The notes: generated by a model from the letters alone, not told the origin. 64,000 nt of DNA from Candidatus Cloacimonadota bacterium (GCA_030626645.1 DAOUTP010000001.1:4719-68718), one strand, 5' to 3'; positions 3,306 through 63,022 are shown, numbered from the stretch's first letter. Translations and numbers: made by a program.

Positions 3306-3309
3306 ACTA

Positions 3310-5738: not shown

Positions 5739-5741
5739 AAT

Positions 5742-21315: not shown

Positions 21316-21331
21316 TCTAATAATATTTTTG

Positions 21332-21404
21332 AAGCGATGGAAGGATTTGAACCTCCGACCTTTAGGTTATGAGCCTAACGAGCTACCAACTGCTCCACAT
21401 CGCA
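21332..21404 (-). tRNA. tRNA with CAU anticodon (Met, or Ile2 if lysidinylated)
   Basis: The reverse complement folds as a cloverleaf: acceptor UGCGAUG/CAUCGCU (6 bp plus a U1-U72 mismatch); D arm GAGC-AGUUGGUA-GCUC; anticodon arm UUAGG-CUCAUAA-CCUAA; variable AGGUC; T arm GGAGG-UUCAAAU-CCUUC. No encoded CCA. Confidence 0.8.
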
Positions 21405-38672: not shown

Positions 38673-38740
38673 CGTAAAAAGGATACTACATTAGTATATG
38701 ATCTATAAAAAAATAGATCATATACAGTGTTATGCCCCAT

Positions 38741-38932
38741 TTAAGACCGCAAAGAGCGGATGGGCGATAATTTAACTATCCTGTACCCATTTATTGTAAT
38801 GTCCGTTTTTTTTAGGCGGCTAAATTGATATTCTAAAATATGCTTCTTAACTCCGATAAGTTTAGCAAGCGGAGGAACACTCCCGTATATGCCGGGAGTG
38901 TCAGTTTCTATGTGTCGTGTCCAAAATTCCAT
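38741..38932 (-). CDS. small DNA-binding-like protein (possible homing-endonuclease C-terminal remnant)
   Basis: 63 aa. IYGSVPPLAKLIGVKKHILEYQFSRLKK...INGYRI resembles the HTH/NUMOD-type tails of GIY-YIG/HNH homing enzymes. Weak. Confidence 0.4.
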   Translation of the reverse strand: MEFWTRHIETDTPGIYGSVPPLAKLIGVKKHILEYQFSRLKKTDITINGYRIVKLSPIRSLRS

Positions 38933-38933
38933 C

Positions 38934-39158
38934 TTATTTATTTCTTAATACTTTGCAGTTATCATATCCGTAATGTGATGCTACTGCATAATCAGATTCT
39001 TCAATGCCATATTCAAAAGCCTTTTCTTCTTCTAAATCGCAATTTTCTAAAAAGAAATCCATTATTTCTTCCTCAGTTGGGTATTCTTCGTTATTATCAT
39101 TCCACAATACATAAAAACTCTCGTTGTAATCTTCTAAGTTTAATTTTAAATTTGACAT
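38934..39158 (-). CDS. small acidic protein
   Basis: 74 aa, strongly acidic (EEYPTEEEIMDFFLENCDLEEE), upstream of 38741..38932 in the same unit. Confidence 0.5.
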   Translation of the reverse strand: MSNLKLNLEDYNESFYVLWNDNNEEYPTEEEIMDFFLENCDLEEEKAFEYGIEESDYAVASHYGYDNCKVLRNK

Positions 39159-39442
39159 CTTTTTTATTTTTAAATAATTACTTCGTTATAATTATAGTAC
39201 AAATATACGACCTTATATTGCTTTCTCAACACTGGAAAATAAAAGTTATTAACAATTTGATGGTTTTATATTGTTTTAAGAACGCAAAGGAAAAAACGGG
39301 GCATAACACTAAATATAGCCCATTTGGCTACAAAATTGGTCCCTGAATGACAAGTCGGTCAATGCCAAACGTGCCATATTTTTAACGTTGTACTCCGTAT
39401 ATTATTATTTTGCGAATATTTTGTATATTAAATAAATCATAT

Positions 39443-47436: not shown

Positions 47437-50310
47437 TTATTTATTTAATTTACAATATTCACACTCGCCGCATCCTTCAGAAAACTCCTGATTTTTAATT
47501 TTCTGATAAACTTCTTTAATCTGATTTCTTACTTTTTGTTCATCTTCCACTTTAATGACTACTGTGTCTTTTTTCTCCGGAGTAACAAAAGCAATTTTGA
47601 TGTCTCTTACTTTCCATGATTTCCATTGTACTTCATCCATAGCTAATTTACAAAATTTCATTTGACGATAAACATCACCATCCGGTTTCATTTTACTTAA
47701 AGTTGATTTGTAGTTTCCAGTTTTATAATCCACCAAATCAATGATTTCACCATCAAATTCTATTTTATCAACTATTACTTTCACAGGAATATCATCAATA
47801 TTTACTTTAGCTGTAAATTCATTAAGTGTAATCTTATTACTATAACGAACTATTTTATCATAATACTCTAATAATACAATTTTACCTAACTCCGTTCTAC
47901 GCACTATTGCCTCTTTTGATAGTATTCCCTCACTTTTTGCTAAAGTGCTTCTAAAAGTCTCAAAAAGCCATTCTCCTGTGTGTTTTAATCCATTTTTATA
48001 ATCATTATAGTATCTCTGTAATGACACATGGATTGCTGTTCCATAAATACCTGCTTCGTTAGCAAGATATGGAACTTTAATTATATTTTGATAATAGAAT
48101 TGCACCGGACATTTCAAATAAAGATTCAAAGCCGATGGAGACAATCTGTAAAATTCCAATAATTTGGCAATATATTCTTTTTCTAAAGCCGGTTGAAACA
48201 CCTCTGGTTTTAAATTGTAAGACAAATGAGAAACAAAATCAGGTTCTTGTTCGTTTTGAATGATTTTTATTTCCGATTCATCAATAAACTGGCTTCTTTC
48301 CAAACCCTTATCATCATTTGTTTTACAAGAATAAGACATGATTAACTGTTTTCTTGCTCTGGTCATTGCCACGTAAAATAAACGTCTTTCTTGTTCCTCT
48401 TTGGCTGATTCGGTTTTAGTAATAGTTTCAGGTAATTTGAATCGGTTGACATTTCCCCGAGAACCTTCCCATTCATTTCTGGTGCATTTTATCATAAAAA
48501 CATAATCGAACTCTGTGCCTTTGGCCCCATGACACGTTAAAAAGTTTATTCCTTCTTCATTATAGTTAATATTCAAAACAGGAATACCAATACTGTTTTT
48601 TCTCAGATTTTCTATTAAACTCAATAATGCTTTAATATCAAGTAACGAATTTTTACTTACCTCTGCTTTTACAAAATCAAAAAAAGTTGTTAATTCAATA
48701 AACTTTTGAATTCTATCCGGTTGGTTATTGATGTATTCAATAATATTACAATTTTGAAATATTAATTCCATTAATTGAAGTAAAGTATGATTTTGAGAAT
48801 CTTTTTTTAATTGTTTTTTTACATATAAAAATGGTAAAAAATCTTTAAGAATAGCAGAAGATTTAAAATCTAAATCAGGAAATGTTTTCTCTGCAATTGA
48901 TTTCTCAATTTGTTCAATCGGGAGATTAAAGAAATTAAAAAATGCTATTTGATGTAGATTCTCACCTGTTTCAATATAATTAAGAATTTTAACAATTTGA
49001 TTTGTCAAAACTAAATCCAAAATATTGGTTCTTCTTTTGATATTAATAGGTATGTCTCTTTGCTGAAATTCTTTAATGATATTTAGGGAATGTTTGTGTT
49101 TTCGATAAATAACAGCAATATCACATGGATTTACACCATTATCTATCAATTCCAGAATTTCTTCAATAGTTCTCATTTCTTCTTCTGTTACAGTTTTATA
49201 CTCTACTGATAAAGAAATTGGATCATCGGCACGTTCAGGATTTCCTTGAATCATATCTACATCTCCTACAACTATTTCATTATGCCTGATTAGATTGGCT
49301 GCATAATCTATTATTTGTTGATTACTTCTATAATTATACTTTAAATTGATTTCAACAGGATTATATTTTCTTTGAAAATCAAGAATATTTTGCAAACGAG
49401 ACCCACTAAATTCATAAATTGTTTGTTGAAGATCACCAACGCAAAATATATTAGGATTTGGCCAAAAATCAATCAAAAGGTTTAATAATCTCATTTGACT
49501 TCTATTTGTGTCCTGGACTTCATCTACGAGTAGATATTGGTATTTTTCCTGGTATTGCCTTAGAAAATTTTCATTGTTCTCAAATGCTTTAATTACCCAT
49601 AGGAGAAGGTCTGAAAAATCAAATCTTTCAATTTCTGTTAATTTTGCATTGTATTGCTCCAACAAATATGCTCCAGCAATTAACTTATCCATTTTTTCCT
49701 TTTCAGAAGCAATTAAGTGTTTTTTTACATCTCCTACTTTTATTTCCTTTTTTTTATTTGCTCTTTTGTAGATGTATCTATCATCAAAAGGTAAATTTTC
49801 AAGATATTCATCGCACTTTTTCTCAATATCATCTTTTGTGTAATGTTCTTCTTTTAAAAATTGAAATAATTGAGTTAATCTACCAACTTCATAATAAATA
49901 TCACCAGATAATCTTTTAAGAATATGATTTATAGGAAGTTTATCAATAATCTCTTTTATTATTCCTATTTTTTCCAATTCTGAAACCGGTTCAACGTTTC
50001 TTACACCAAAATAATCCAGTCTGTTTTGGATAATATCATTAGAAAAGCTATGAAAAGTATGAATACCAATTTTATATGCTGTTGAACTGATATTTTTTAT
50101 AAGTTTTTGTCTCATGTTGATAGCACCTATGTCCGTGAATGTTAAACAAAGAATGTTCTCTGAATTTATTTGTGCAACCGACATTAACATTTTTTCAACA
50201 CGACTTGCTAATACAGTTGTCTTTCCTGTTCCGGCAGAAGCTGCAACATATACTGCTCCTTCAATTGTATCAACTGCGAATTGTTGTTCTTTATTTAGAT
50301 TTGTTTCCAT
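47437..50310 (-). CDS. UvrD/AddA-type SF1 helicase fused to a Cas4/AddB-like PD-(D/E)XK nuclease with Cys cluster
   Basis: 957 aa. Walker A is AASAGTGKTT and motif II is LLVDEVQDTN. The C-terminal nuclease region has LKCPVQFYY...IDLVDYKTG...CGECEYCKL (1+3 Cys Fe-S pattern). Confidence 0.8.
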   Translation of the reverse strand: METNLNKEQQFAVDTIEGAVYVAASAGTGKTTVLASRVEKMLMSVAQINSENILCLTFTDIGAINMRQKLIKNISSTAYKIGIHTFHSFSNDIIQNRLDYFGVRNVEPVSELEKIGIIKEIIDKLPINHILKRLSGDIYYEVGRLTQLFQFLKEEHYTKDDIEKKCDEYLENLPFDDRYIYKRANKKKEIKVGDVKKHLIASEKEKMDKLIAGAYLLEQYNAKLTEIERFDFSDLLLWVIKAFENNENFLRQYQEKYQYLLVDEVQDTNRSQMRLLNLLIDFWPNPNIFCVGDLQQTIYEFSGSRLQNILDFQRKYNPVEINLKYNYRSNQQIIDYAANLIRHNEIVVGDVDMIQGNPERADDPISLSVEYKTVTEEEMRTIEEILELIDNGVNPCDIAVIYRKHKHSLNIIKEFQQRDIPINIKRRTNILDLVLTNQIVKILNYIETGENLHQIAFFNFFNLPIEQIEKSIAEKTFPDLDFKSSAILKDFLPFLYVKKQLKKDSQNHTLLQLMELIFQNCNIIEYINNQPDRIQKFIELTTFFDFVKAEVSKNSLLDIKALLSLIENLRKNSIGIPVLNINYNEEGINFLTCHGAKGTEFDYVFMIKCTRNEWEGSRGNVNRFKLPETITKTESAKEEQERRLFYVAMTRARKQLIMSYSCKTNDDKGLERSQFIDESEIKIIQNEQEPDFVSHLSYNLKPEVFQPALEKEYIAKLLEFYRLSPSALNLYLKCPVQFYYQNIIKVPYLANEAGIYGTAIHVSLQRYYNDYKNGLKHTGEWLFETFRSTLAKSEGILSKEAIVRRTELGKIVLLEYYDKIVRYSNKITLNEFTAKVNIDDIPVKVIVDKIEFDGEIIDLVDYKTGNYKSTLSKMKPDGDVYRQMKFCKLAMDEVQWKSWKVRDIKIAFVTPEKKDTVVIKVEDEQKVRNQIKEVYQKIKNQEFSEGCGECEYCKLNK

Positions 50311-50311
50311 A

Positions 50312-50506
50312 TTAGAAAGGTATTTTAATTAAATTTTTATTTCTGATTTCATCTACTATTAAAATAGGGAGTTCGGTTTTAATTTTATACTGAATTACTT
50401 GTCGAACAAATTTTGATTTATTTATACCATATTTTTCTAATTTCCCTAAATTATTTACCATTTCGACAGTCATTCTAAATCTTTGTATTTCAGTTAATTT
50501 ACTCAT
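50312..50506 (-). CDS. ribbon-helix-helix DNA-binding protein, paralogue A
   Basis: MSKLTEIQRFRMTVEMVNNLGKLEKYGINKSKFVRQVIQYKI has a beta-strand-helix-helix layout. The track ORF starts 13 codons early. The first 15 codons plus 35 nt upstream are identical to paralogue B. Confidence 0.65.
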   Translation of the reverse strand: MSKLTEIQRFRMTVEMVNNLGKLEKYGINKSKFVRQVIQYKIKTELPILIVDEIRNKNLIKIPF

Positions 50507-50541
50507 AAATGTCCTACAAAAGGTGTGTATATCTACTGTTA
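50462..50541. repeat. 80-bp exact repeat, copy A
   Basis: Identical to 59520-59599. It ends at the GTTA core (50538-50541). Confidence 0.95.
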
Positions 50542-51010
50542 GCATTAATACTACGTAGCGGATCTAAATATCACTATCATACTATCGTGTTTCCCTTTGT
50601 TTTTAGTTGAGTATTCACCTTTTGTATTATATCCCTTAAATGCTATCCTACCCTTTATAAATCTAATTTCAGCATTTGGTAACATAAGTTCGTGAAATTG
50701 TTTTGTGCCTGTTGCACTTGGTATTAATAGCACACAAGTATTTCCTTTTTGCCATTCCTCGTAAGCCTTTTGTATAAATTTTGGTTTATTAACTCTATCA
50801 TAAGGAGGGTTAATAAAATTAGATTTTCCCCACCCGCATTCAAGCCCATCAAATTTTGCATTTAAAGGGCAAGGATCAAAGTCAAAGGCAAACTCTTGGT
50901 TTAGTTCATTATATAAATATTCTGGGGTTTTCCAATGGTTACTATTTTCTAATCCGTCTCTATTTTTCATATCAATTTTTGTTTTTAATTAAACCGTACT
51001 AATGCTAACA
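50537..51010. repeat. IR-bracketed unit 1 (TGTTAGCATTA / TAATGCTAACA, 11 bp)
   Basis: Arms at 50537-50547 and 51000-51010 are perfect reverse complements. Cargo is the Dam-type MTase. Confidence 0.85.
50551..50970 (-). CDS. phage Dam-family N6-adenine DNA methyltransferase (PF05869-like)
   Basis: HWKTPEYLYNELNQEFAFDFDPCP...NFINPPYDR...CVLLIPSATGTKQF shows WxTP, D-P-C and intact NPPY motifs. Confidence 0.75.
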   Translation of the reverse strand: MKNRDGLENSNHWKTPEYLYNELNQEFAFDFDPCPLNAKFDGLECGWGKSNFINPPYDRVNKPKFIQKAYEEWQKGNTCVLLIPSATGTKQFHELMLPNAEIRFIKGRIAFKGYNTKGEYSTKNKGKHDSMIVIFRSAT

Positions 51011-51048
51011 ATATGTAACAGGCATTAAAACGACCTGTTACACAAACC

Positions 51049-51298
51049 GTTATGTGGCATTTACAATACGGTTAATATCATTATGGAAATCTAAAGCATC
51101 ATCAATATTCATTCCTAACTCTAATCCAAGTTCTGCTGATGTGCACGTGCAAAAAGGATAGTCTTTTTTTATTAATCCATTTGCAGCCTTAGCACACTTT
51201 ATTGACCATAATAAATACTCTTTACCTCTTTTTGCTTTTAGTAGTCTTAATAAGTTTTGTTTATTGTGGAGTATTACTTTTAAATAACGCCACATAAC
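51049..51298. repeat. IR-bracketed unit 2 (GTTATGTGGC / GCCACATAAC, 10 bp)
   Basis: Arms at 51049-51058 (overlapping the stop) and 51289-51298 (inside the track ORF; contains an in-frame ATG). Confidence 0.85.
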
Positions 51299-51352
51299 AA
51301 TAGATAAAATCCATTGCTTAAATTGTGCTAACTTGTTAGTTTTATGTTTCAT
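51050..51352 (-). CDS. hypothetical protein
   Basis: Track ORF 51050..51397. Plausible starts are ATG 51352 (MKHKTNK...) or ATG 51295 inside the IR arm (MWRYLKV...). Confidence 0.5.
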   Translation of the reverse strand: MKHKTNKLAQFKQWILSIVMWRYLKVILHNKQNLLRLLKAKRGKEYLLWSIKCAKAANGLIKKDYPFCTCTSAELGLELGMNIDDALDFHNDINRIVNAT

Positions 51353-51414
51353 ATCAATATTATTATAAGTTTGAAAAATTATAATTCTAAATCGCAACGT
51401 ATCTTATCAAGAAC

Positions 51415-51645
51415 GTTATAAACAATTAACCAACTATTATAGTAGTTAATTGGTCTTGATAGTCTAATTTTGCATTTATAATACACTTATTTTTATCATC
51501 AAATGCTTTAGAGTGCCTAACTCTACCTTCTTCTTTGTTAATGTTTGTTGTTTCTGTTTGCTTCCATTTGTGTTGATTTCCAAATGGTATTATTTTATAT
51601 TCAAAATATTTCCCAGTTAATTTCATAATTTTATCAGTTTATAAC
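51415..51645. repeat. IR-bracketed unit 3 (GTTATAAAC / GTTTATAAC, 9 bp)
   Basis: Arms at 51415-51423 and 51637-51645, lying 2 nt past the stop and 10 nt before the ATG of 51426..51626. Confidence 0.85.
51426..51626 (-). CDS. hypothetical small protein
   Basis: 66-aa ORF, cargo of unit 3. Confidence 0.55.
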   Translation of the reverse strand: MKLTGKYFEYKIIPFGNQHKWKQTETTNINKEEGRVRHSKAFDDKNKCIINAKLDYQDQLTTIIVG

Positions 51646-51727
51646 ATCAGCTCATAAATAATAGCCGATGAAGATTAATACTATATTTCAAAGTTTGTGG
51701 TACGGCTACTATTCATAGCTGAGTACC
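51646..51727. repeat. inter-unit linker, copy a
   Basis: ATCAGCTCATAAATAATAGCCGATG...GGCTACTATTCATAGCTGAGTACC. Homologous to 52110-52190, 60991-61109 and 62450-62564. Confidence 0.8.
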
Positions 51728-52109
51728 GTTATAAAACATTTGCCACCGCACTAATTCAAGTCTTTTTTGTGACTCATGTTCCCATCTGTAATATGTACTT
51801 TTTTATCTGATAATTCGTCACTAAATGAATTACCGAGAAATCCCATAAGCATTCCAATTTTTGTATCGTAATGTGGATGGCATTCTTCATTGTATCCCTC
51901 TTCATCTGCTTTTTTACATACTGCACTAAATGTTTCTCTAATTTCTTTAGGTTGTATAAAATCTGGTTTGCAACAACTAAAGTCAGGGCAGCATTCATCA
52001 TCTACCTTGTTGTGTATTGGATTTCCTTTCACCCATTCTTCCAGTTGGTTGTTGCTTCTTTCTTTGTAATTATTTCCTTTTAAAGCCATCGCTCAAAACG
52101 TTTTATAAC
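51728..52109. repeat. IR-bracketed unit 4 (GTTATAAAAC / GTTTTATAAC, 10 bp)
   Basis: Arms at 51728-51737 and 52100-52109, the latter 10 nt before the ATG of 51751..52089. Confidence 0.85.
51751..52089 (-). CDS. hypothetical Cys-rich protein
   Basis: 112 aa with ECCPDFSCCKPDF...ECHPH. Cargo of unit 4. The overlapping frame 51774..52001 was rejected. Confidence 0.6.
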   Translation of the reverse strand: MALKGNNYKERSNNQLEEWVKGNPIHNKVDDECCPDFSCCKPDFIQPKEIRETFSAVCKKADEEGYNEECHPHYDTKIGMLMGFLGNSFSDELSDKKVHITDGNMSHKKDLN

Positions 52110-52190
52110 AACGGCTCATATTTAATTGCCGTTGTAAATTTGTGCTTAGTTTTGAAAGTTTATAGTTCGGCAACTAAACATAGCCAAACC
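52110..52190. repeat. inter-unit linker, copy b
   Basis: AACGGCTCATATTTAATTGCCGTTG...GGCAACTAAACATAGCCAAACC. Confidence 0.8.
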
Positions 52191-52562
52191 GTTAGCAGCA
52201 ATATTATTTTTTGCCACCGCACATTTCAACAGCAACTACATGCCCTACCTCCGCTTCTTCGTATGTAGCATATTTGTCTTGGTATTGGTCATGTTCTCCG
52301 CCAAATATCATTGTCTCAAACAATATAGGAGTGCCACCGCCAAATGAGTGGTCTAATCCTAAAAATACTGTTGAAACATTTACCTCTTTTGAAATCTCAG
52401 TTTTTGCAATATGTCTTTCGGCTGTCTCAAACCACTTAGCCCATTCCATCATATCATCAACTGTCTTAATTGTTTTCCCTTCTAAAATGTAATTTTTCAT
52501 CTTGTTTGTATTTTAATGTTTATAATTCCTTCCCTCAAATAAAAAATAAAAAAGCTGGTAAC
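52191..52562. repeat. IR-bracketed unit 5 (GTTAGCAGC / GCTGGTAAC, 9 bp, 1 mismatch)
   Basis: Arms at 52191-52199 and 52554-52562. Confidence 0.65.
52204..52500 (-). CDS. conserved phage protein of unknown function
   Basis: 98 aa. STVFLGLDHSFGGGTPILFETMIFGG...YATYEEAEVGH is a pattern I recognise from many phage hypotheticals. No function known. Confidence 0.65.
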   Translation of the reverse strand: MKNYILEGKTIKTVDDMMEWAKWFETAERHIAKTEISKEVNVSTVFLGLDHSFGGGTPILFETMIFGGEHDQYQDKYATYEEAEVGHVVAVEMCGGKK

Positions 52563-52609
52563 ACGTTGTAAAATTCATTGCGAAAAGCAACGAAATCTTA
52601 CAACCATAC

Positions 52610-52874
52610 GTTATAGGGCATTTAAGAATCCACCCCAGTTGAAAATAATGGCTTGCCACATTTGCAACATACAACCGCATAATCTTCGTTTGCATAATCT
52701 TGATAATATCCACATTCATCACCATTATCATAATCAATATCTTCCGAAAATTCTTTATTGGTATTAATTTCTTCCATTCTTTTTTCTATACATTCAAAGC
52801 AGTAGTAGTTGTCTTCATCTTCCCAAAATATCCAATTTGCTAATTCCTTATTCATAATAAAAACGCCCTATAAC
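52610..52874. repeat. IR-bracketed unit 6 (GTTATAGGGC / GCCCTATAAC, 10 bp)
   Basis: Arms at 52610-52619 and 52865-52874, lying 2 nt past the stop and 9 nt before the ATG of 52622..52855. Confidence 0.85.
52622..52855 (-). CDS. small acidic zinc-ribbon-like protein
   Basis: 77 aa with CFEC...CCKCG. Cargo of unit 6. Confidence 0.6.
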   Translation of the reverse strand: MNKELANWIFWEDEDNYYCFECIEKRMEEINTNKEFSEDIDYDNGDECGYYQDYANEDYAVVCCKCGKPLFSTGVDS

Positions 52875-52984
52875 AATGTATAATAAGTCATTGCCTCTAA
52901 GGTCTTTGTTTAAAATTTGTGTTTAATTATTAGTTTTATTTTCATCCTTAATTTTTGTGATGGCAACGCTTCTTATACTAAGCG

Positions 52985-53368
52985 TTATGCACAATAGAAG
53001 TATCCACGCCCACTTAACAATCCAGTATCTTCACTGAATGTAGCTTCGGTAGTTATTGCACCCTTTAGTTCTTTAATCAGCTTTTGTAGCTTATAGTTAG
53101 TCCAGCCAAACCTTTTAAGTATTCCCTTTTTACACGGCAAAATATCAGCAGTATTCCAAGCGTAAACATATAAGCATAATTTTTGGTGGGCGTTTAATTC
53201 GTCATAGTTTATTTTGCCTTCATCTCTGATACTATCAATAAACTGCTCATTATGGAAGCTTGTGTAGTAAGGTTTGTCTTCCACTCTGCTCTTAAAATCT
53301 ACTGTACCTAACAACGTATCATACGCCATTGGCTTGCTGTTATTTGTAGTTTCGTTCTTTTTTGTCAT
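52985..53368 (-). CDS. hypothetical protein (leader MAYDTLLGTV related to the linker-encoded AINYEPLLG)
   Basis: 127-aa ORF followed by the hairpin AACGCTT-N8-AAGCGTT. Confidence 0.6.
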   Translation of the reverse strand: MTKKNETTNNSKPMAYDTLLGTVDFKSRVEDKPYYTSFHNEQFIDSIRDEGKINYDELNAHQKLCLYVYAWNTADILPCKKGILKRFGWTNYKLQKLIKELKGAITTEATFSEDTGLLSGRGYFYCA

Positions 53369-53380
53369 TGTATCAAGTAT

Positions 53381-53443
53381 TTAAATTTTTGAACATCCGA
53401 TTATAGGATTCCATGTTTCTGTTGCCCATTCAATTTTTGTCAT
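53381..53443 (-). pseudogene. 20-codon remnant of a DUF5131 (phage Gp37/Gp68) gene
   Basis: MTKIEWATETWNPIIGCSKI* equals the characteristic N-terminus (M..IEWT..TWNP..GC) but terminates after 20 codons. Confidence 0.55.
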
Positions 53444-53453
53444 ATCTTTTATA

Positions 53454-53795
53454 TTAAATTCTAAAACTTTTCAAAATTACTTTCAAATCACTAATAGACC
53501 TACATCCGGATAATGGTATCTCAAAATCCTTAACATATTGAATATGCCTTATAAGCAAAACGTTCTCTTTTTGCAATTGCCAATGATTACTAATTTTTTT
53601 ATATTGACAAATCACTTGTAGTATTAAATCTCCTTTTTGCTTAGTATAAATAGCAGTTTTCATATTTTGACTTCTACTCAAAAGTTTTGCTTTGTCCAAT
53701 TCATAAGAAATTCTAAATCCCATTTCTCTTAATTGTATTTCAGGAAATTTACTTTTGCGTTGTTCCATCATTAATATATTTACCAGAAGGATCAC
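53454..53795 (-). CDS. hypothetical protein
   Basis: 113-aa ORF. The start probably lies at an internal Met because of the 47-nt overlap upstream. Confidence 0.5.
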   Translation of the reverse strand: MILLVNILMMEQRKSKFPEIQLREMGFRISYELDKAKLLSRSQNMKTAIYTKQKGDLILQVICQYKKISNHWQLQKENVLLIRHIQYVKDFEIPLSGCRSISDLKVILKSFRI

Positions 53796-54528
53796 TTTTT
53801 AATACATCATCATTATTTTCAACAAAAATTTTTTTTTTGGTAAGAGGATCAACAAAAACAGTTGTACCTTTTGAATCAAACTTTTTACCTATAACATCAG
53901 GTTCGTTTTCAGGAACTTCGGTAGCAGAAAATTGTAATTGAATTGGGATCCATTTTTCATCTTTTTTCAGATGAATCTTTTCATAGGTTTTGTATCCTTT
54001 GATTGTTTTTGCTTTTTTTACCATTTTGATACAACTTTGAAAATTTTCATCATTAACTACTCTTTCATCTTCTTCAAAATTAAGTAATGTTTTGATTTTT
54101 TTATTATCAAATCTTCCCCTTGTCATTTTCAAAGAATCCAAAAGCATTGCCGGAAGTACTCCATCATTTTCCCCGATGAATTTTTCAAGAAAATCATAGG
54201 CCAGTATCATTTCTGCTGAATTGTATTCAACAACAGCATTGCTTTCAACCGACACTTTAATTGTCTCATTGAAGTTGTACCAGACATGATTCTTCATTTC
54301 CTGGTCATCAACCTTGTTTTCATCTAAAAATGCCTTATATGCCTTCTGTGTGCTTTCTATGACCATTTTTTTCAGGACACTAAGAGATGTTTCCACCTTT
54401 ACAGCTTGTTTGGCTATTTTTACTGCTTCAGTTTCTCTTACCTTTTCAAGTTTGGTAATTCTTTTGACTTCAACAGAGTTTCCTTTACTGTCTATCCACT
54501 CTGGGCCAGTTTGTTTCTTGATTTCCAT
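53749..54528 (-). CDS. hypothetical protein
   Basis: 259-aa ORF in the replication module. It loosely recalls DUF3164 proteins; not asserted. Confidence 0.65.
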   Translation of the reverse strand: MEIKKQTGPEWIDSKGNSVEVKRITKLEKVRETEAVKIAKQAVKVETSLSVLKKMVIESTQKAYKAFLDENKVDDQEMKNHVWYNFNETIKVSVESNAVVEYNSAEMILAYDFLEKFIGENDGVLPAMLLDSLKMTRGRFDNKKIKTLLNFEEDERVVNDENFQSCIKMVKKAKTIKGYKTYEKIHLKKDEKWIPIQLQFSATEVPENEPDVIGKKFDSKGTTVFVDPLTKKKIFVENNDDVLKSDPSGKYINDGTTQK

Positions 54529-58468: not shown

Positions 58469-59365
58469 TTATTGGCAAAAATATTTATGAACAGCCATAT
58501 TTTCTGCATTTTGTTTTTTTGAAATTCTGATATAATTCATAAAACCTTTCCATGTTGTATGCCCGGTTAACATTCTTACCATATTAGGATCCAATCCCGC
58601 TAAAACCATATTTGTTGCAGCACTCCTTCGTGCCGTATGGCTTGTAATAAGCTCATATTTGAGTTTAATGACATCTTTTTTACGTTTACCACCTCTGACC
58701 TCAGAAACAATGATTTTATCGTTGATGGAAGCCATTTCGCCTACACAACGTATTTTTTTAATAAATGTAGCAAGATTTTGAATTTTCAACTTTGAAAGAT
58801 CATAATCATATTTTTCTAAAATTTCCCGAACCATCCAATGAATAGGAATAATTACATGGCTTTGTGTTCTTTTGAAACCTTTGAATACATTTATTTTTAA
58901 AAAATCACCTTCCAAACTTTCAGGACGTATCTGAGTATAGTCTGATACCCGAAGTGTTGTGTGGGCACCAACCAAAAAAACATCTCTTATATGTTCTTCC
59001 TGGCCCGATAGATTTAATTCCCACATTCTTTCAAGTTCGACTGATGAAAGAACTATATGATCACAGTAAACCCAATTGAATTTGAATTCTTCATAGGGAT
59101 TTTTTAGTATTAAACCTTTTCTTATTGCTGACTTGATTATTTTTCTTAAATTAGAATGTTTTAATGAAATATAATTTGTTTTGTAGTCTTTATCTAATAA
59201 AAAATTATTGAAACTTTCTATGAATTCATAGTCAATATCCTTAAATTTAATATTTGAATTAAACTCATTTAATAACTTTAATGTTGTCATTTGAACATTA
59301 TAAGTAGTTAAGTTTAAGTTTCTGTTGTTTTTTAATTCGTTCTCGAAAAACTGGTTGAATGTCAT
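58469..59365 (-). CDS. tyrosine recombinase / integrase
   Basis: 298 aa with an N-terminal SAM-like core-binding region. The catalytic set is recognisable: TTLRVSD (Arg), HTARRS (His-x-x-Arg), LTGHTT (His), MNYIR (Tyr). Confidence 0.85.
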   Translation of the reverse strand: MTFNQFFENELKNNRNLNLTTYNVQMTTLKLLNEFNSNIKFKDIDYEFIESFNNFLLDKDYKTNYISLKHSNLRKIIKSAIRKGLILKNPYEEFKFNWVYCDHIVLSSVELERMWELNLSGQEEHIRDVFLVGAHTTLRVSDYTQIRPESLEGDFLKINVFKGFKRTQSHVIIPIHWMVREILEKYDYDLSKLKIQNLATFIKKIRCVGEMASINDKIIVSEVRGGKRKKDVIKLKYELITSHTARRSAATNMVLAGLDPNMVRMLTGHTTWKGFMNYIRISKKQNAENMAVHKYFCQ

Positions 59366-59369
59366 AATT

Positions 59370-59564
59370 TTAAAAAGGTATTTTTATTAAATTTTTCATT
59401 CTTTTTTCTTTTGCTAATAAAACAGAATAGTCTAAATTAATTTTTTCACGAATTGCCGTTCTTATAAATGTTGATTTTTTTATTCCAAATCTGGTTAAAT
59501 TGTTTAATTTTTCAACATCTTCGACAGTCATTCTAAATCTTTGTATTTCAGTTAATTTACTCAT
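59370..59564 (-). CDS. ribbon-helix-helix DNA-binding protein, paralogue B
   Basis: MSKLTEIQRFRMTVEDVEKLNNLTRFGIKKSTFIRTAIREKI. Lies 4 nt upstream of the integrase. Confidence 0.65.
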   Translation of the reverse strand: MSKLTEIQRFRMTVEDVEKLNNLTRFGIKKSTFIRTAIREKINLDYSVLLAKEKRMKNLIKIPF

Positions 59565-59599
59565 AAATGTCCTACAAAAGGTGTGTATATCTACTGTTA
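59520..59599. repeat. 80-bp exact repeat, copy B
   Basis: Identical to 50462-50541. It ends at the GTTA core (59596-59599). Confidence 0.95.
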
Positions 59600-59819
59600 T
59601 AAATCATTTACTCCTCTTCAAGTATTTGCTTTATCAGGTCGGCAGCCAAAATACGTTCAGCCTTTGTGTAGTTTTTCTCATACACTACATTTGTAACTAT
59701 TTTATACATATCATCCATCCTCTTGGTTTTACTCAAAGGCTTTCCACTCATTGGATGCCTTTGGTTTTTCTGTTGTTGAAACTTCGCAATAATATTTATC
59801 ATAAAAACGCTTTATAACA
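59595..59819. repeat. IR-bracketed unit 7 (TGTTATAAA / TTTATAACA, 9 bp)
   Basis: Arms at 59595-59603 and 59811-59819, lying 4 nt past the stop and 8 nt before the ATG of 59608..59802. Confidence 0.8.
59608..59802 (-). CDS. hypothetical small protein
   Basis: 64-aa ORF, cargo of unit 7. Confidence 0.55.
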   Translation of the reverse strand: MINIIAKFQQQKNQRHPMSGKPLSKTKRMDDMYKIVTNVVYEKNYTKAERILAADLIKQILEEE

Positions 59820-60034
59820 ATGTATATAAAAAATAAAAATCACTAACGTTCGTGCCGTCCGCAATTTTTGCACACTCTTGGGGCATTGGGGAAATCTAAC
59901 ACCCATCTGTTTGGTTTATACTCGTGGTCACACCACATTTGCTTCCATTTCAATCTTATCCAAATTTTAAAGTCTCCTATCATATCCGTAATTTTTAAAT
60001 TTTATATACTGGTCGTTATAAACCATAATTTGCC

Positions 60035-60277
60035 CTATATGTCACAATAGCATTTATTACACATAAGCCCTAAAATTGTTGGTTCACACTCTTCTTCACA
60101 GTTAGAGCAAATAACAGGTTTTATAACAACAGGTATAGTTAAATTTTTAACTTGCTCCTGTGCATATTCTTCCATAGCTTCTATAAATATGCTTAATGGT
60201 ATATCATCAAATCTTGCACTTTTATTCTTATCGTAAAAGTATTTAATGTGTTTGTCTAAAATCTTTTCTGCATTCAT
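60035..60277 (-). CDS. small Cys-rich protein
   Basis: 80 aa with CSNCEEEC...CNKCYC. Confidence 0.55.
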   Translation of the reverse strand: MNAEKILDKHIKYFYDKNKSARFDDIPLSIFIEAMEEYAQEQVKNLTIPVVIKPVICSNCEEECEPTILGLMCNKCYCDI

Positions 60278-60322
60278 ATCTGTATTTTTTATTCGTTAAA
60301 AATCAAACCATACCTGCGGCAC

Positions 60323-60990
60323 GTTAGGCAAAATGTTTAGCGACACTCTGCTCATCAGTTTGGTTTATCGGCATTATTAATATTTCAATATCATTCATTG
60401 AGAATAAACTCATAGAGTTCGGTTCTTTTTGAGATAGTAAAATAATTGAATCACTCTTTATATAATTAGCAATAGCAACTATTTTACTTAGATACTTCTC
60501 TTTAAATCGTGATTTTTTAATATCAATGAAATGATTTTTATCATATATTTTTCTACCTGTTTTTATTACATGGTTTTTGCTCAATTTTTTATCGCCATTA
60601 CAAACAGGGCAATCAAAGTAATCAGTATATCCCTCATATTCCCATTCAACTTCACCATTTCCTTCACATTCTTTACAAGTGTAGTCGCTTTCTACATTTC
60701 TAAATTCCTCAATTTTCGGTATACTGGTAATAGCCTCTTTTAATTCTGCTATCTTTATAGTGTATTTTAATTGTTTTTTATCAGGCATTATTCTTGCAAT
60801 ACTTTCTCTAATACTTTCTTTTATTGGTTCGTAATCATTTATGACACATTTCTTTGGCACTTTAATTAAAGCGTGTCCATCGGTAGCATAAACATAGTCG
60901 TCAATAATAAATGGTTCAATCATCCATTCTCTGTACGTGTCAGTACTGGTGAATAACTTTACAATTTCGTCATAAAACACTTTGCCTAAC
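60323..60990. repeat. IR-bracketed unit 8 (GTTAGGCAAA / TTTGCCTAAC, 10 bp)
   Basis: Arms at 60323-60332 (overlapping the stop) and 60981-60990 (inside the ORF at codons PLLGKV). Confidence 0.85.
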
Positions 60991-61046
60991 AACGGCTCAT
61001 AATTAATAGCCTTAGTTTTGTCGGTATTTTTACTATCTTTTTTCAT
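60324..61046 (-). CDS. hypothetical protein with DnaJ-type zinc knuckle
   Basis: 240 aa with CKECEGNGEVEW...CPVCNGDKK. The first 19 codons are encoded by linker copy c. Confidence 0.65.
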   Translation of the reverse strand: MKKDSKNTDKTKAINYEPLLGKVFYDEIVKLFTSTDTYREWMIEPFIIDDYVYATDGHALIKVPKKCVINDYEPIKESIRESIARIMPDKKQLKYTIKIAELKEAITSIPKIEEFRNVESDYTCKECEGNGEVEWEYEGYTDYFDCPVCNGDKKLSKNHVIKTGRKIYDKNHFIDIKKSRFKEKYLSKIVAIANYIKSDSIILLSQKEPNSMSLFSMNDIEILIMPINQTDEQSVAKHFA

Positions 61047-61109
61047 ATCAAGTTTATTTATAAGTTGAAATATTTGTCATTTTAAGTGGCTACTAATCAT
61101 AGCCAAACC
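60991..61109. repeat. inter-unit linker, copy c (partly coding)
   Basis: AACGGCTCATAATTAATAGCCTTAG...GGCTACTAATCATAGCCAAACC. Confidence 0.8.
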
Positions 61110-61360
61110 GTTATAGCCAATTAAGGCTTAATGTCTGTGGTTTTTACGGTCTTGCATAAATTAACAATGCTAATACAGTCTCTGCAATCAACTTTTTCTT
61201 TGGTTCTAATTCCCTTATTTATATCAAGCCCCGGGTCACCAGCTGTCTCAAGCCCACACAAGGTATAATCATTACTTACTGCATCAACATGAACCAAATT
61301 ATCATATCCTGTTTTTATTTTAATATGGAGTGCCATTCTCTAAAATTAACTGGCTATAAC
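61110..61360. repeat. IR-bracketed unit 9 (GTTATAGCCA / TGGCTATAAC, 10 bp)
   Basis: Arms at 61110-61119 and 61351-61360, lying 1 nt past the stop and 14 nt before the ATG of 61121..61336. Confidence 0.85.
61121..61336 (-). CDS. small Cys-containing protein
   Basis: 71 aa with TLCG...CRDC. Cargo of unit 9. Confidence 0.55.
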   Translation of the reverse strand: MALHIKIKTGYDNLVHVDAVSNDYTLCGLETAGDPGLDINKGIRTKEKVDCRDCISIVNLCKTVKTTDIKP

Positions 61361-61478
61361 AATGTATATAAAAAATACAGGGTGTCAGCCTAATTTATGC
61401 AGTTATACCACTTTTTTAAATTCTGTGAGTATCAGGTAGGTTACCGCTTCTATCTCCTGTACTTTTCATATACTTAAC

Positions 61479-61736
61479 GTTAAGCACAAGCTACTTTTTG
61501 TCAATTAATGTAACAAATTGCTTACTGTTTTTCGTTCCAATAAAACCACCATATCCTTTAATATTCCATTTGTATTTAGGTTTTGGTAATGGGAATTTAA
61601 GTGTATCCCATTTAGCACCATTATTTGTGTCTGCAATAAAGTGGTTATCAGTAGTTATTCCGCAATTTGACCATCCATCAGGGTACTCTACTTGTATTGT
61701 TCTTTCTTTTCGTTTTGCAAACCGCCAGTGCTTAAC
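61479..61736. repeat. IR-bracketed unit 10 (GTTAAGCAC / GTGCTTAAC, 9 bp)
   Basis: Arms at 61479-61487 and 61728-61736 (inside the ORF at codons SVKH). Confidence 0.8.
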
Positions 61737-61790
61737 ACTAAATATAGCAAATTTGCTTCTGTTCTTTGGGTATTGTTCTTCGTTATTCAT
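61491..61790 (-). CDS. hypothetical protein
   Basis: 99-aa ORF. The N-terminal 19 codons (..KFAIFS) are encoded by the shared flank. Confidence 0.55.
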   Translation of the reverse strand: MNNEEQYPKNRSKFAIFSVKHWRFAKRKERTIQVEYPDGWSNCGITTDNHFIADTNNGAKWDTLKFPLPKPKYKWNIKGYGGFIGTKNSKQFVTLIDKK

Positions 61791-61850
61791 TTTGTATATA
61801 ATTTAAAAGTTTGTAATTTTTTTCTAAGGCAAACTTGCCATATTATTTCC

Positions 61851-61957
61851 GTTAGCGGTCAGTTTTTTATTTCTAAACCGCAGTATTTGCATATGAACTT
61901 ATCTCCTTTAGGTATTGCTGTTCTGGTCAGGCAGGAGCAAAAAACCGAACCGCTAAC
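61851..61957. repeat. IR pair 11 (GTTAGCGGT / ACCGCTAAC, 9 bp) enclosing only the last ~30 codons of an ORF
   Basis: Arms at 61851-61859 and 61949-61957. Confidence 0.7.
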
Positions 61958-62107
61958 ATGCGGTATATTGCAGTTTTTTACTACCTTATCCTCCAACCAT
62001 TTTACATAATATTCAGAGAAAGTTATTGGTTGTCCTAACCAATCTGGAATTTCACAACCTTTCCCTGTCTCATTATCAAATTGCTCTCTTAATTTTTTTC
62101 TATTCAT
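61859..62107 (-). CDS. small Cys-rich protein
   Basis: 82 aa with CSC...CKYCG. Confidence 0.55.
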   Translation of the reverse strand: MNRKKLREQFDNETGKGCEIPDWLGQPITFSEYYVKWLEDKVVKNCNIPHVSGSVFCSCLTRTAIPKGDKFICKYCGLEIKN

Positions 62108-62156
62108 ATATTTAGTATTTTAATTCCGTAAAAAAACCACACTATACCGCCAGAGT

Positions 62157-62449
62157 GTTATGCCCCATAAGGCTATCTATCATATTCTTTAAAGAAATCA
62201 TCAACATCCATTTGCCCACCATCCTCAAAGTTCCCTTTTGTGGTGTTCAGAAACCTTTCAAGCTCTCTACGTATGTCATTTTTGTCAAGGTCAGTTTTTC
62301 CTTCACTCTTCAAATACTCTTTAAATTCATCTTTGCACTCCCAACATACATATCCTACACTTGGTACATAAATGTCACACATTATATTTTCGCATTCTTT
62401 TCTGCTACAGCTCATTACTCCCATGTTTTCTAAATTTACGGGGCATAAC
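62157..62449. repeat. IR-bracketed unit 12 (GTTATGCCCC / GGGGCATAAC, 10 bp)
   Basis: Arms at 62157-62166 and 62440-62449. Same arm sequence as the unit at 38726-39310 but different cargo. Confidence 0.85.
62173..62424 (-). CDS. small Cys-rich protein
   Basis: The track ORF begins at an ATG that is part of the IR arm. The likelier start is ATG 62424 (MGVMSCSRKECENIMCD...CWEC). Confidence 0.55.
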   Translation of the reverse strand: MGVMSCSRKECENIMCDIYVPSVGYVCWECKDEFKEYLKSEGKTDLDKNDIRRELERFLNTTKGNFEDGGQMDVDDFFKEYDR

Positions 62450-62564
62450 AACGGCTCATAAATAATAGCGGTTGTAGTGCTTATCCCAAGTTTATACTAT
62501 ATTTTTAATTTCGTTCATTAATCTAAATTCTGTGGTTTGTTTCCGCTACTATTCATAGCCCAAC
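62450..62564. repeat. inter-unit linker, copy d
   Basis: AACGGCTCATAAATAATAGCGGTTG...CGCTACTATTCATAGCCCAAC. Confidence 0.8.
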
Positions 62565-63022
62565 GTTACCCATAATACTACAAGTAACTTTCCATATCAG
62601 ATTTTACCTTGTCTAAATGGGTACTATTTTTTATTGTTTCTAATATTTTACCATCTTCAACTTTATAAAGAATAGCAAATAACTCTATCTTATCATTTTC
62701 AAACGAAAATACTGCAACGTAATCTTCTGTAATATCTCCACCTTTTGGAAAATCAAGTGATAAGTATATTCTTTTTGCACCGTTATTTTTATACTCGGCA
62801 AATCTTCTATAATAAGAAGCAACATCTCCACCTAATGCTAATGCGTTTATTTCAAACTTACTATCTTTTGTTTCTGCAAAAAGTTGAAATGGATAATGTC
62901 CGTAACATTCACTATCTTCTATAAAATCTACTTTTACCATTGTTTTTACAAATTCTTCTACTGTTTTCATTTTTATATAATTTTAAAGTTAATATTTCAA
63001 TTTAAACCGTACTATGGGTAAC
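62565..63022. repeat. IR-bracketed unit 13 (GTTACCCAT / ATGGGTAAC, 9 bp)
   Basis: Arms at 62565-62573 and 63014-63022. Cargo is 62578..62970. Confidence 0.8.
62578..62970 (-). CDS. hypothetical protein
   Basis: 130-aa ORF, cargo of unit 13. Confidence 0.65.
   Translation of the reverse strand: MKTVEEFVKTMVKVDFIEDSECYGHYPFQLFAETKDSKFEINALALGGDVASYYRRFAEYKNNGAKRIYLSLDFPKGGDITEDYVAVFSFENDKIELFAILYKVEDGKILETIKNSTHLDKVKSDMESYL

Follow-up and report, generated by a model that had tools for sequence, protein, structure and literature searches.

Why are six small phage genes each framed by a matched pair of short inverted repeats ending in GTTA or TAAC? The locus that raises this question, array A, occupies positions 50537-52874 of a 64,000-nt window, the whole stretch of DNA that we analysed. 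With moderate confidence, we interpret it as six mobile gene cassettes that follow an integron-like logic without an integron integrase. In bacteria, the classic means of gathering accessory genes and reshuffling them is the integron cassette, and to our knowledge the origin of cassettes and the reach of the system beyond bacteria are still open questions.

Paired arms around the genes of array A

The initial annotation listed six arm pairs in array A, and all of them were found at their coordinates (Table 1). Complementarity is exact over 9-10 bp in five of the six; the arms of unit 5 (52191-52199 and 52554-52562) contain one mismatch, but are 82% complementary over 22 nt when extended. Most arms are longer than first noted, with ten perfect pairs followed by a G.T wobble at position 11 and 3-5 further pairs (as in unit 6, 52610-52623 and 52861-52874), which gives a complementary stem of 14-16 bp with a fixed wobble. 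Each upstream arm consists of GTTA plus six unit-specific bases, and the downstream arm is complementary to it and ends in TAAC. The arm pairs tile the array, one gene per pair, so that the order in the direction of transcription (minus strand) is a TAAC...GTTA foldback spacer, the upstream arm, the ORF and the downstream arm. The previously reported CTAAC-TT-GTTAG motif is also present.

Exact pairs of at least 9 bp numbered 5 in the interval 50301-53000, against a mean of 0.185 and a maximum of 3 in 200 dinucleotide shuffles, and 15 in the whole window, against 3.9 ± 2.0 in shuffles. Cognate arms of at least 9 bp were found at 7 of the 97 ORFs in the window, compared with a rate of 0.0003 for non-cognate pairs of upstream and downstream flanks, and adjacent non-cognate arms across the spacers pair over only 4, 4, 8, 5 and 4 bp. 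The shuffles and the cognate and non-cognate rates bear out the earlier claim that arrays A and B share a repeated grammar beyond chance. Beyond the window, about 20 uncultured viral contigs and cultured phages of Polaribacter and Cellulophaga show this grammar as well. A count over 21 unrelated viral contigs gave 19 of 374 ORFs with cognate arms of 9 bp or longer (0.00064 for non-cognate pairs); in Polaribacter phage P12002L, arms of at least 8 bp flank 3 of 78 ORFs (against 0.0013).

Several features of the arms could also be explained at the level of RNA. The spacers would then be mRNA hairpins, and in a long transcript the arms would bring the 5' and 3' flanks of each cistron together by base pairing. 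The stems so formed could be processing sites, as are the RNase III stems on either side of rRNAs, or protective panhandles, and DNA exchange at the core would be a by-product. Where pairing in the arms first departs from Watson-Crick rules, we found a coding-strand G.T in 14 cases and the antisense type in none, with the position constant throughout, as expected of such a role. Consistent with this explanation, in units 3, 4 and 6 the upstream arm precedes the ATG by 9-10 nt and the downstream arm follows the stop codon by 2-13 nt, a geometry that had been described and that we confirmed. Host-type promoter or terminator consensus sequences were not enriched inside the array (sigma-70-type and Bacteroidota-type promoters were tested), so co-transcription is plausible. 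The RNA explanation does not account for short-type units, in which 40-66 nt separate the upstream arm from the ATG and a T-run comes after the arm, nor for an invariant 4-base core in an otherwise free stem.

The Dam-family call made for the cargo of unit 1 is supported by its Pfam match. Cargo had been described as diverse, which holds (a Dam methyltransferase and small Cys-rich proteins), and as including a conserved phage hypothetical, which is unsupported, since the ORFs of units A2-A6 had no PHROG match and no Pfam match above the family's curated threshold. We also correct the description of unit 2: its right arm falls within the longest ORF, and an ATG inside the arm (51295) would yield an 81-aa product. 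The cargo presumably represents accessory or anti-defence genes, a function that is inferred.

Table 1 Features of array A and related elements of the window (orientation is given where assigned)
Feature	Position	Strand	Remarks
80-nt perfect repeat, copy 1	50462-50541		Ends in GTTA core 50538-50541, start of array A
Small ORF, 64 aa from conserved ATG ('RHH' of the initial annotation)	50312-50506	-	Paralogue 59370-59564
Unit 1 downstream arm	50538-50547		Gene orientation TAATGCTAAC
Unit 1 cargo, Dam-family N6-adenine DNA methyltransferase, 139 aa	50551-50970	-	PF05869, E = 4e-18; phrog_111
Unit 1 upstream arm	51000-51009		Gene orientation GTTAGCATTA; extends to 14 bp, G.T at position 11
Junction A2/A1, 47-nt TAAC...GTTA foldback	51006-51052	-	Loop TCGTTTTAATG; type of published P12002L_attC1
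Unit 2 downstream arm	51049-51061		A2 stop codon is TAA of core
Unit 2 cargo ORF, 81 aa from ATG inside arm	51050-51295	-	Longest ORF reaches 51397
Unit 2 upstream arm	51286-51298		GTTATGTGGCGTT
Junction A3/A2, 124 nt	51295-51418	-	Without H1/H2 hairpins; contains CTAAC-TT-GTTAG, 51328-51339
Unit 3 downstream arm	51415-51423		
Unit 3 cargo ORF, 66 aa	51426-51626	-	
Unit 3 upstream arm	51637-51645		
Junction A4/A3, 90-nt long-type foldback	51642-51731	-	z = -3.3
Unit 4 downstream arm	51728-51741		AAATGTTTTATAAC
Unit 4 cargo ORF, 112 aa	51751-52089	-	Cys-rich
Unit 4 upstream arm	52096-52109		GTTATAAAACGTTT
Junction A5/A4, 89-nt long-type foldback	52106-52194	-	93-97% identity to spacers of L020, L040 and L046
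Unit 5 downstream arm, 22 nt	52191-52212		Imperfect
Unit 5 cargo ORF, 98 aa	52204-52500	-	
Unit 5 upstream arm, 22 nt	52541-52562		Imperfect, 1 mismatch in first 9
Junction A6/A5, 55-nt short-type foldback	52559-52613	-	91% identity to spacer of L005
Unit 6 downstream arm	52610-52623		
Unit 6 cargo ORF, 77 aa	52622-52855	-	CxxC motifs
Unit 6 upstream arm	52861-52874		
First junction of array A, 117 nt	52871-52987	-	TAAC formed by stop codon of ORF 52985-53368 and a C
Solitary unit	38729-39307	-	Arm allele is that of B5; cargo 39158->38934 antisense to neighbouring plus-strand genes
Tyrosine recombinase, 298 aa, non-IntI	58469-59365	-	Adjoins 80-nt repeat copy 2 and array B
Array B, at least 7 further units of array A grammar	59596-63022	-	

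Boundaries and arms in related phages

The initial annotation had named two outcomes that would refute it: arms not conserved as pairs in relatives, and unit boundaries unrelated to the arms. Neither was found. The Polaribacter phages P12002L and P12002S are 99% identical, and three of the five indel or replacement breakpoints between them fall exactly at ACGTT(A/G); the differences include a whole methyltransferase cassette inserted between two TAACGT sites. Similarly, L043 and L045 are 99.6% identical over 3771 nt and then diverge exactly at the core, so that the boundaries of near-identical phages coincide with cores in both comparisons. Among 20 matches between the window and other contigs, 15 reach the upstream core and 11 of these end 0-4 nt from TAAC; the downstream ends vary. 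Complementarity is also kept where the sequence differs: four Dam-family cassettes carry four types of arm (GTTAGCATTA, GTTGTAAAC, GTTATAGTGA and GTTACCGGC), each with a perfect partner, and their upstream hairpin shows compensatory changes. At the sequence level, comparison shows that cassettes have been gained, lost and replaced at the core, that arms co-vary, and that the spacer travels with the gene downstream of it. An RNA role leaves core-positioned DNA breakpoints between near-identical phages unexplained.

These observations suggest a cassette composed of a foldback recombination site (the TAAC...GTTA spacer), an upstream arm, an ORF and a downstream arm that complements the upstream one and ends in TAAC. 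Within a unit, the arms would be the halves of one extended stem that closes the cassette's own foldback site in the excised circle. When the cassette inserts, strands would be exchanged within the invariant core, at TAA|C as read on the coding strand, and the stem halves would be parted, which would be why the arms flank the gene. We infer, by analogy with integron attC sites, that the exchange may be site-specific and take place on a folded single strand. Why arm alleles recur around unrelated cargo is left unexplained by the model, and complementary arms are missing in some cassettes (P12002L gp36 and P12002S gp38).

The recurrence of spacers invites another explanation, in which they are conserved regulatory modules that are shuffled by homologous or microhomology recombination between repeated copies, with no dedicated site-specific enzyme. 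Spacers are indeed 93-97% identical among phages with unrelated flanking genes, and unrelated ORFs are enclosed by identical frames of spacer plus arm or of leader and tail; the upstream arm and leader of unit 4, for example, also flank unrelated ORFs in L011, L040 and L046. In addition, one P12002L/P12002S breakpoint lies ~10 nt inside a spacer and not at the core, and methyltransferase gene segments are common to different phage genera without their spacers. The PeSLs of T4-type phages provide a precedent, as they are likewise conserved intergenic stem-loop modules, which lie beside small accessory genes in hyperplastic genome regions and mark boundaries of gene exchange; they have been described as mobile regulatory cassettes whose exchange was attributed to homologous recombination (Arbiol et al. 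2010, PMC2839356; Comeau et al. 2014, PMC4122927). A PeSL is defined by a conserved stem-loop together with an early promoter, and complementary arms do not enter the definition. The arrays do have conserved stem-loop spacers; neither the sigma-70-type nor the Bacteroidota-type promoter consensus is enriched in them. PeSLs are not known to show complementarity that spans the gene and is specific to the unit, or an invariant crossover core of 4 bases. Regulatory modules would also give no reason for such complementarity or for its compensatory evolution, and the insertion in P12002S is bordered by merely 6 nt of identity (TAACGT). We regard this explanation as quite unlikely, with the caveat that homologous recombination within a conserved block ending at TAAC could account in part for the sharpness of this boundary.

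Junction foldbacks and attC sites

The junctions of the arrays are imperfect hairpins bounded by AAC/GTT. TAAC...GTTA bounds every junction in arrays A and B, and CAAC...GTTG is found in one relative. With the cores paired, 31 of the 52 candidate junctions reach a folding energy of -6 kcal/mol or better, and in 29 of these 31 the coding strand folds better, a comparison that shows it to be the strand that folds. A single extrahelical G, located on the 3' arm beside a 6-bp stem, is conserved in long-type sites; folding of the coding strand of junction A4/A3, for example, gave a single attC-like hairpin with the extrahelical G on its 3' arm. The strand asymmetry fits an RNA role equally well, as the favoured strand is the mRNA strand. 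Searches with Rfam covariance models found only a tRNA-Met in the window and nothing credible in 50300-53500 at E values up to 5, and the absence of an Rfam family match counts against an RNA element. On balance, we consider an RNA-level explanation unlikely but a real possibility.

Clusters of attC sites that lack an integrase are known as CALINs. The attC sites and CALINs of virulent phages likewise involve small co-oriented ORFs and imperfect hairpin sites of ~50-130 nt with ...AAC/GTT... ends, and one spacer and one arm core of P12002L were annotated as attC sites (Qi et al. 2023, PMC9892861). The integron integrase IntI1 recombined P12002L_attC2, with sequence-verified G|TT junctions, but did not recombine P12002L_attC1, the hairpin spacer most like the array A type (Qi et al. 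2023, PMC9892861). The R' box of P12002L_attC2, GTTAGGC, is the core of the arm flanking gp35, and P12002L_attC1 is of the same spacer type as 51052->51006. The link to integron attC sites was missed in the initial annotation.

The array junctions share several properties with attC sites. The one sequence that all attC sites have in common is a pair of inversely oriented AAC and GTT triplets (Nivina et al. 2016, PMC5027507), and the junctions of arrays A and B meet this criterion. Their core-to-core length of 47-126 nt was judged to meet that of attC sites, imperfect hairpins of 57-141 bp with a variable terminal structure. Crossover also falls within the conserved triplet, as seen in the P12002L/P12002S and L043/L045 comparisons, the end of the 80-nt repeat and the match ends, and the cassette ends are complementary, as if derived from halves of one folded site. 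As in attC cassettes, the stop codon often lies inside the core, and methyltransferases are among the cargo. Near-identical attC repeats are found in sedentary chromosomal integrons, for example in Vibrio cholerae. Like the arrays, these integrons have near-identical sites around unrelated cargo and long variable terminal loops, but their repeats are shared within one chromosome rather than among different phages, and the cognate integrase of the arrays is unknown.

Other canonical properties are absent or only partly matched. Arms such as GTTATAA, GTTAGCA and GTTACCC have pyrimidines at R positions of the consensus RYYYAAC/GTTRRRY; the published phage attC sequences GTTATAC and GTTATAT deviate similarly. 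The L'' arm of a canonical site carries 2-3 extrahelical bases spaced 6 bp apart, and each arm contains 5-6 unpaired nt as a central spacer; in long-type sites only one such base is evident, and the unpaired region is asymmetric (4-6 versus 0-4 nt). The array stem of 14-16 bp (10 bp, G.T, 3-5 bp) contrasts with a 7-bp R box. In canonical attC sites the bottom strand folds, antisense to the ORF, whereas here it is the coding strand; the site travels with the downstream gene, and the ORFs are inverted relative to canonical integron cassettes.

Candidate enzymes and the 80-nt repeat

An integron integrase was absent from the window: the protein encoded at 58469-59365 is its only tyrosine recombinase, and the criterion for a complete integron (intI, attI and Pc) is not met. 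This protein scored 18.5 bits against TIGR02249, which has a cutoff of 265 bits, and was ruled out as an integron integrase; its best matches are weak ones to XerC/D. A small recombinase beside array B raises the possibility that the cassettes are invertible, each gene being flipped at its own heterospecific inverted repeats as an on/off switch. Inverted repeats also flank the segment in invertons, and at invertons or heterospecific lox-type sites a variable central segment would limit recombination to cognate partners, as the unit-specific 6-nt segment might do here. Homologues of the recombinase in other Bacteroidota phages sit beside tail-fibre genes, a typical neighbourhood for invertases. 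Invertons are expected in both orientations, but all 13 units in the window, and all units in the other phages, have a single gene orientation relative to the spacers, although no read-level data were available. The grammar also occurs in phages without any recombinase, and the coding-strand-specific wobbles argue for folded single strands as opposed to the duplex sites of invertons or lox. Inversion is thus very improbable. The initial annotation had left three alternatives, of which comparative data favour exchangeable cassettes and uniform orientation disfavours invertible ones; RNA stems stay possible, given that folding favours the coding strand.

For integron-like cassettes, the enzyme is unidentified and could be a host IntI, the 298-aa phage recombinase or something else. 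The recombinase remains a candidate only, and none of its homologues elsewhere adjoins such arrays. Arrays are present in P12002L and P12002S, but the features listed for these phages include no annotated integrase, with only part of P12002S examined. It is conceivable, though we would not expect it, that Bacteroidota phages carry their own integron analogue, independent of IntI. Its platform would comprise an 80-nt entry site ending in GTTA, a small DNA-binding protein and a non-IntI tyrosine recombinase; it would capture self-contained cassettes of foldback site plus gene; and its substrate would be the folded coding strand, in which the TAA|C crossover sits within a helix of 10 bp that has a G.T wobble at either end. 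If so, the construction of cassettes would have left a visible trace, namely the same arm, leader and tail sequences recurring around unrelated ORFs.

On the cassette reading, more than 12 accessory genes of one phage are packaged as cassettes, including a methyltransferase of the type that phages use against restriction, in a grammar common to cultured and uncultured phages of Flavobacteriia-type hosts. If true, this would explain how anti-defence and other accessory genes are exchanged in such phages, and an enzyme other than an integron integrase would mean a second, independent invention of the integron strategy. The identical frames around unrelated ORFs offer a way to study cassette origin, and P12002L, P12002S and Cellulophaga phi12:1 are culturable test systems.

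Both arrays abut the 80-nt perfect repeat. We infer that it is a candidate primary (attI-like) site, at which cassettes might enter, or else a conversion tract starting at the core. A Pfam search of ORF 50312-50506 found no match, and its RHH fold is putative; its only PHROG match was 25647, of unknown function. The repeat reported earlier as 80 bp is real: its second copy, at 59520-59599, matches the first in all 80 columns and stops exactly at the GTTA core. It is embedded in a duplication of ~233 nt, the remainder of which is about 80% identical.

Complementary arms around single genes

Because the genes from 40 to 64 kb of this tailed-phage DNA (30.5% G+C) lie on the minus strand, array A runs from 52987 to 50538 in reading direction. 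Besides a large terminase, the window encodes virion proteins, a DnaB helicase and a UvrD/PD-(D/E)XK helicase. The initial annotation had placed six pairs of GTTA/TAAC-core arms in the array, with a Dam-family methyltransferase as the cargo of unit 1. We found all six pairs in place, and the methyltransferase was recognized by its domain (PF05869, 4e-18). The A2-A6 proteins had no PHROG matches and no Pfam matches above the curated threshold. Complementarity was exact over 9-10 bp in five of the six pairs; the arms of unit 5 contain one mismatch, yet are 82% complementary over an extended 22 nt. In 50301-53000 we counted five exact GTTA.../...TAAC pairs of 9 bp or more, against a mean of 0.185 (maximum 3) in 200 dinucleotide shuffles; the whole window has 15, against 3.9 +/- 2.0. 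In a second control, each ORF's upstream flank was paired with the downstream flanks of all other ORFs. Cognate arms of at least 9 bp flanked 7 of the 97 window ORFs, compared with a non-cognate rate of 0.0003. Chance and low complexity are ruled out by these two controls. Between neighbouring arms on either side of a spacer, pairing extends over just 4, 4, 8, 5 and 4 bp, so the complementarity spans the gene.

The arms keep a fixed plan, which we also found in 13 other phage sequences. In 9 of the 12 window units there are ten perfect pairs, made up of GTTA and six bases specific to the unit. Position 11 is G upstream and T downstream, a G.T wobble on the coding strand only, beyond which each arm stem has three to five more pairs. 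At the first non-Watson-Crick arm pair, 14 cases show the coding-strand type and none the antisense type. T precedes GTTA in 25 of 26 units and G follows TAAC in 20 of 26, and arms such as 52861-52874 / 52610-52623 form a 10-bp helix between two coding-strand G.T wobbles. Arm-arm hairpins without cargo ('empty' cassettes) were not found in any of 22 sequences. In several cassettes the cargo stop codon is the TAA of the TAAC core (51050-51052 and 60324-60326 in the window; also in viral contigs L011, L040 and L046).

Four Dam-family cassettes carry four different arm pairs, each perfectly complementary: GTTAGCATTA in the window, GTTGTAAAC in viral contig L043 (52% amino-acid identity), GTTATAGTGA in L046 and GTTACCGGC in L041. 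The hairpin upstream of the Dam gene shows compensatory changes between the window and L043. Judged from sequence comparison alone, the four complementary pairs and the compensatory changes are evidence for selection on pairing. Four unrelated ORFs in four phages, one of the ORFs being HNH-like, also sit within an identical frame of arm alleles, leader (GTTATAAAACGTTTTTGAGCG-ATGG) and tail (GGCAAATGTTTTATAAC, which reads ...ANVL-stop at the C-terminus). In these shared frames, cargo seems to have been exchanged downstream of the start codon and upstream of the last four codons. Arm allele TATGCCCC occurs twice in the window with unrelated cargo. The recurrence of arm alleles around unrelated cargo is unexplained. 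A solitary unit beyond the arrays has arm allele GTTATGCCCC in common with unit B5, but unrelated cargo. Both the polarity of the solitary unit, shown by the position-11 G of the 39297 arm, and its ORF, 39158->38934, are antisense to the plus-strand genes around it.

Coordinates of features in the window and in comparison sequences
Sequence	Feature	Coordinates	Remark
Window	tRNA-Met gene	21331-21404	minus strand
Window	PF01555 methyltransferase gene	22316-23281	outside arrays
Window	Large terminase gene	27636-29927	
Window	PF01555 methyltransferase gene	30035-31363	outside arrays
Window	Solitary unit	38729-39307	
Window	80-nt repeat, array A copy	50462-50541	
Window	Shared-frame copy	52096-52109 / 51728-51741	arms
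Window	DUF3164 protein gene	53749-54528	
Window	Tyrosine recombinase gene	58469-59365	298 aa
Window	80-nt repeat, second copy	59520-59599	directly upstream of recombinase gene
Window	Unit B5	62157-62449	
L011, viral contig	Shared-frame copy	4001-4231	
L040, viral contig	Shared-frame copy	5712-6113	
L046, viral contig	Shared-frame copy	12594-12860	
L053, phage P12002L	Methyltransferase gene gp36	30078-30848	
L141, phage P12002S	Methyltransferase gene gp38	2799-3563	
L142, phage phi12:1	Methyltransferase gene gp6	1899-2702	
L143, Mu-like Bacteroidota phage	Recombinase homologue	10001-10999	332 aa

Junction foldbacks and breakpoints at the core

The junctions between units are foldbacks of 47-126 nt with TAAC at one end and GTTA at the other. 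Short-type junctions are simple hairpins (one example has the loop TCGTTTTAATG), and in the long type the mutually complementary segments TAACGGTTTGGCTATG... and ...TATGAGCCGTTGTTA flank an A+T-rich loop. Junction 51731->51642 (A4/A3) forms a single hairpin on the coding strand (z = -3.3), composed of a paired core, a 4-nt bulge, a 6-bp stem, one extrahelical G in the 3' arm and a 14-bp stem. Of 31 distinct junctions, taken from the window and from other phages, 29 are more stable on the coding strand (binomial P = 5e-7). This bias and the arm positions agree with an RNA role, in which arms and spacers would be processing or protective stems; that possibility remains open, although it leaves the invariant core and the DNA breakpoints described below unaccounted for. 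The window array region matched no known RNA family or ribozyme in Rfam, and no intrinsic terminators were found in 50300-53500. Sigma-70-type and Bacteroidota-type (TTTG...TAnnTTTG) promoters were not enriched, and the promoter and terminator scans were uninformative.

Two insertion models were rejected, a MITE or transposon with target-site duplication and the insertion of spacers into pre-existing palindromes: spacers lack directly repeated flanks, and arm pairing spans the gene, not the spacer. IS200/IS605-type hairpin elements were set aside more tentatively: they are not known to show arm pairing, and no protein scanned was recognized as an HUH transposase. Junction A3/A2 is atypical (124 nt, without the usual hairpins) and contains a near-palindrome, CTAAC-TT-GTTAG (51328-51339), that could be a remnant junction or chance.

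The 15-mer TATGAGCCGTTGTTA retrieved about 20 genuine sites in IMG/VR contigs of 25-40% G+C. In 21 such viral contigs, cognate arms of at least 9 bp flanked 19 of 374 ORFs, against a non-cognate rate of 0.00064, and the arm sequences were very diverse. The same grammar is present in the cultured Polaribacter phages P12002L and P12002S and in Cellulophaga phage phi12:1, especially around methyltransferase genes. Among cultured phages the long-type spacer is absent, and the short type gave one weak match, in Tenacibaculum phage JQ. We found no close relatives for a direct comparison of array A, and megablast in phages was empty. Helicase relatives were at most 38% identical in metagenome and genome collections, with none among viral contigs, and exact-protein look-ups returned nothing but fragments of the same phage, all of them in a single sample.

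At the DNA level the window resembles the contigs only in the junctions, where identity reaches 97% over 110 nt; the genes on either side are unrelated. The upstream core was reached by 15 of 20 matches, 11 of which stop 0-4 nt from TAAC; downstream, matches end at GTTA or extend past it to the arm and leader. A rival reading, proposed for the PeSLs of T4-type phages, is that conserved regulatory modules undergo homologous recombination with one another; it agrees with the conserved spacers and does not account for the unit-specific complementarity. The initial annotation had raised exchangeable cassettes as one of its inferred readings, and near-identical phages lend this support with breakpoints at the core. 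P12002L and P12002S, at 99% identity, differ at five indel or replacement breakpoints, three of them exactly at ACGTT(A/G), and viral contigs L043 and L045 share 99.6% identity over 3771 nt and diverge exactly at the core. In P12002S, a whole methyltransferase cassette (spacer, upstream arm, gene and downstream arm) lies between two TAACGT sites; the spacer thus belongs to the gene after it. These data support exchangeable cassettes and leave open both the responsible enzyme and any RNA-level role. In the methyltransferase genes P12002L gp36, P12002S gp38 and phi12:1 gp6, which come from phages of different genera, the 5' and 3' segments are 87-90% identical, and the middle and flanking spacers differ. 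The arms of gp36 and gp38 are not complementary.

Likeness to integrons and the nearby recombinase

Integron attC sites are hairpins of 57-141 bp in which AAC and GTT are the sole universally conserved bases; crossover occurs inside the conserved triplet on one folded strand, so cassette ends are complementary (Nivina et al. 2016, PMC5027507). The phage units match integron cassettes in hairpin sites, core crossover and complementary ends. A screen of phage genomes with integron finders identified attC clusters in virulent phages including P12002L (Qi et al. 2023, PMC9892861). The reported P12002L_attC1, TGCTAAC GGCTACGGCTAAACGGTCGTTTTAATGCCGTTTTAGCC ATT GTTAGGC, is the spacer type of window junction 51052->51006 (A2/A1), and the R' box of attC2, GTTAGGC, is the core of the arm flanking gp35. 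IntI1 recombined attC2, with G|TT junctions verified; attC1 was not recombined (PMC9892861). Unlike a canonical integron, the array has no integron integrase in the window. Its paired stem is twice as long as the integron R box, the strict purine/pyrimidine consensus of attC is not kept in the arms, and only one extrahelical base is evident. The layout is also reversed, in that it is the coding strand that folds and the site accompanies the gene downstream of it. Given these differences, the array is best described as integron-like, behaving as a phage-borne integron cassette array without being a proven member of that family.

In gene orientation, arrays A and B both end at an 80-nt repeat whose two copies are 100% identical, the rest of the duplication being about 80% identical, and identity stops exactly at the GTTA core. 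Within the repeat are the leader and opening codons of a small paralogous ORF for a putatively RHH-like protein, of which no relatives were found. The plus-strand order recombinase - 80-nt site - GTTA - cassettes mirrors intI - attI - cassettes, a suggestive analogy only; alternatively, the repeat could be a conversion tract begun at the core. The tyrosine recombinase scored 18.5 bits against an integron-integrase cutoff of 265 bits, and a search of viral contigs gave no close relatives. Its homologues do not exceed 39% identity and are ordinary Bacteroidota integrases; some adjoin tail-fibre genes in Mu-like phages, and no arrays of this kind were found near them. A link between the window recombinase and the arrays is therefore not supported. 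The nearby recombinase and the inverted repeats also agree with inversion switches acting on units, but no flipped units were seen.

One recombinase homologue, in a Mu-like Bacteroidota phage (rve transposase, MuB-like ATPase, DUF3164), sits between a Dam-type methyltransferase and tail-fibre genes, a place typical of DNA invertases. The window itself encodes a DUF3164 protein. In Logan SRR22839553, where the same phage was assembled independently, the assembly breaks at the 80-nt repeat. Two further N6/N4 DNA methyltransferase genes (PF01555) lie beyond the arrays, so the phage has at least three methyltransferases, and a tRNA-Met gene is located where the structural block meets the plus-strand early-type block.
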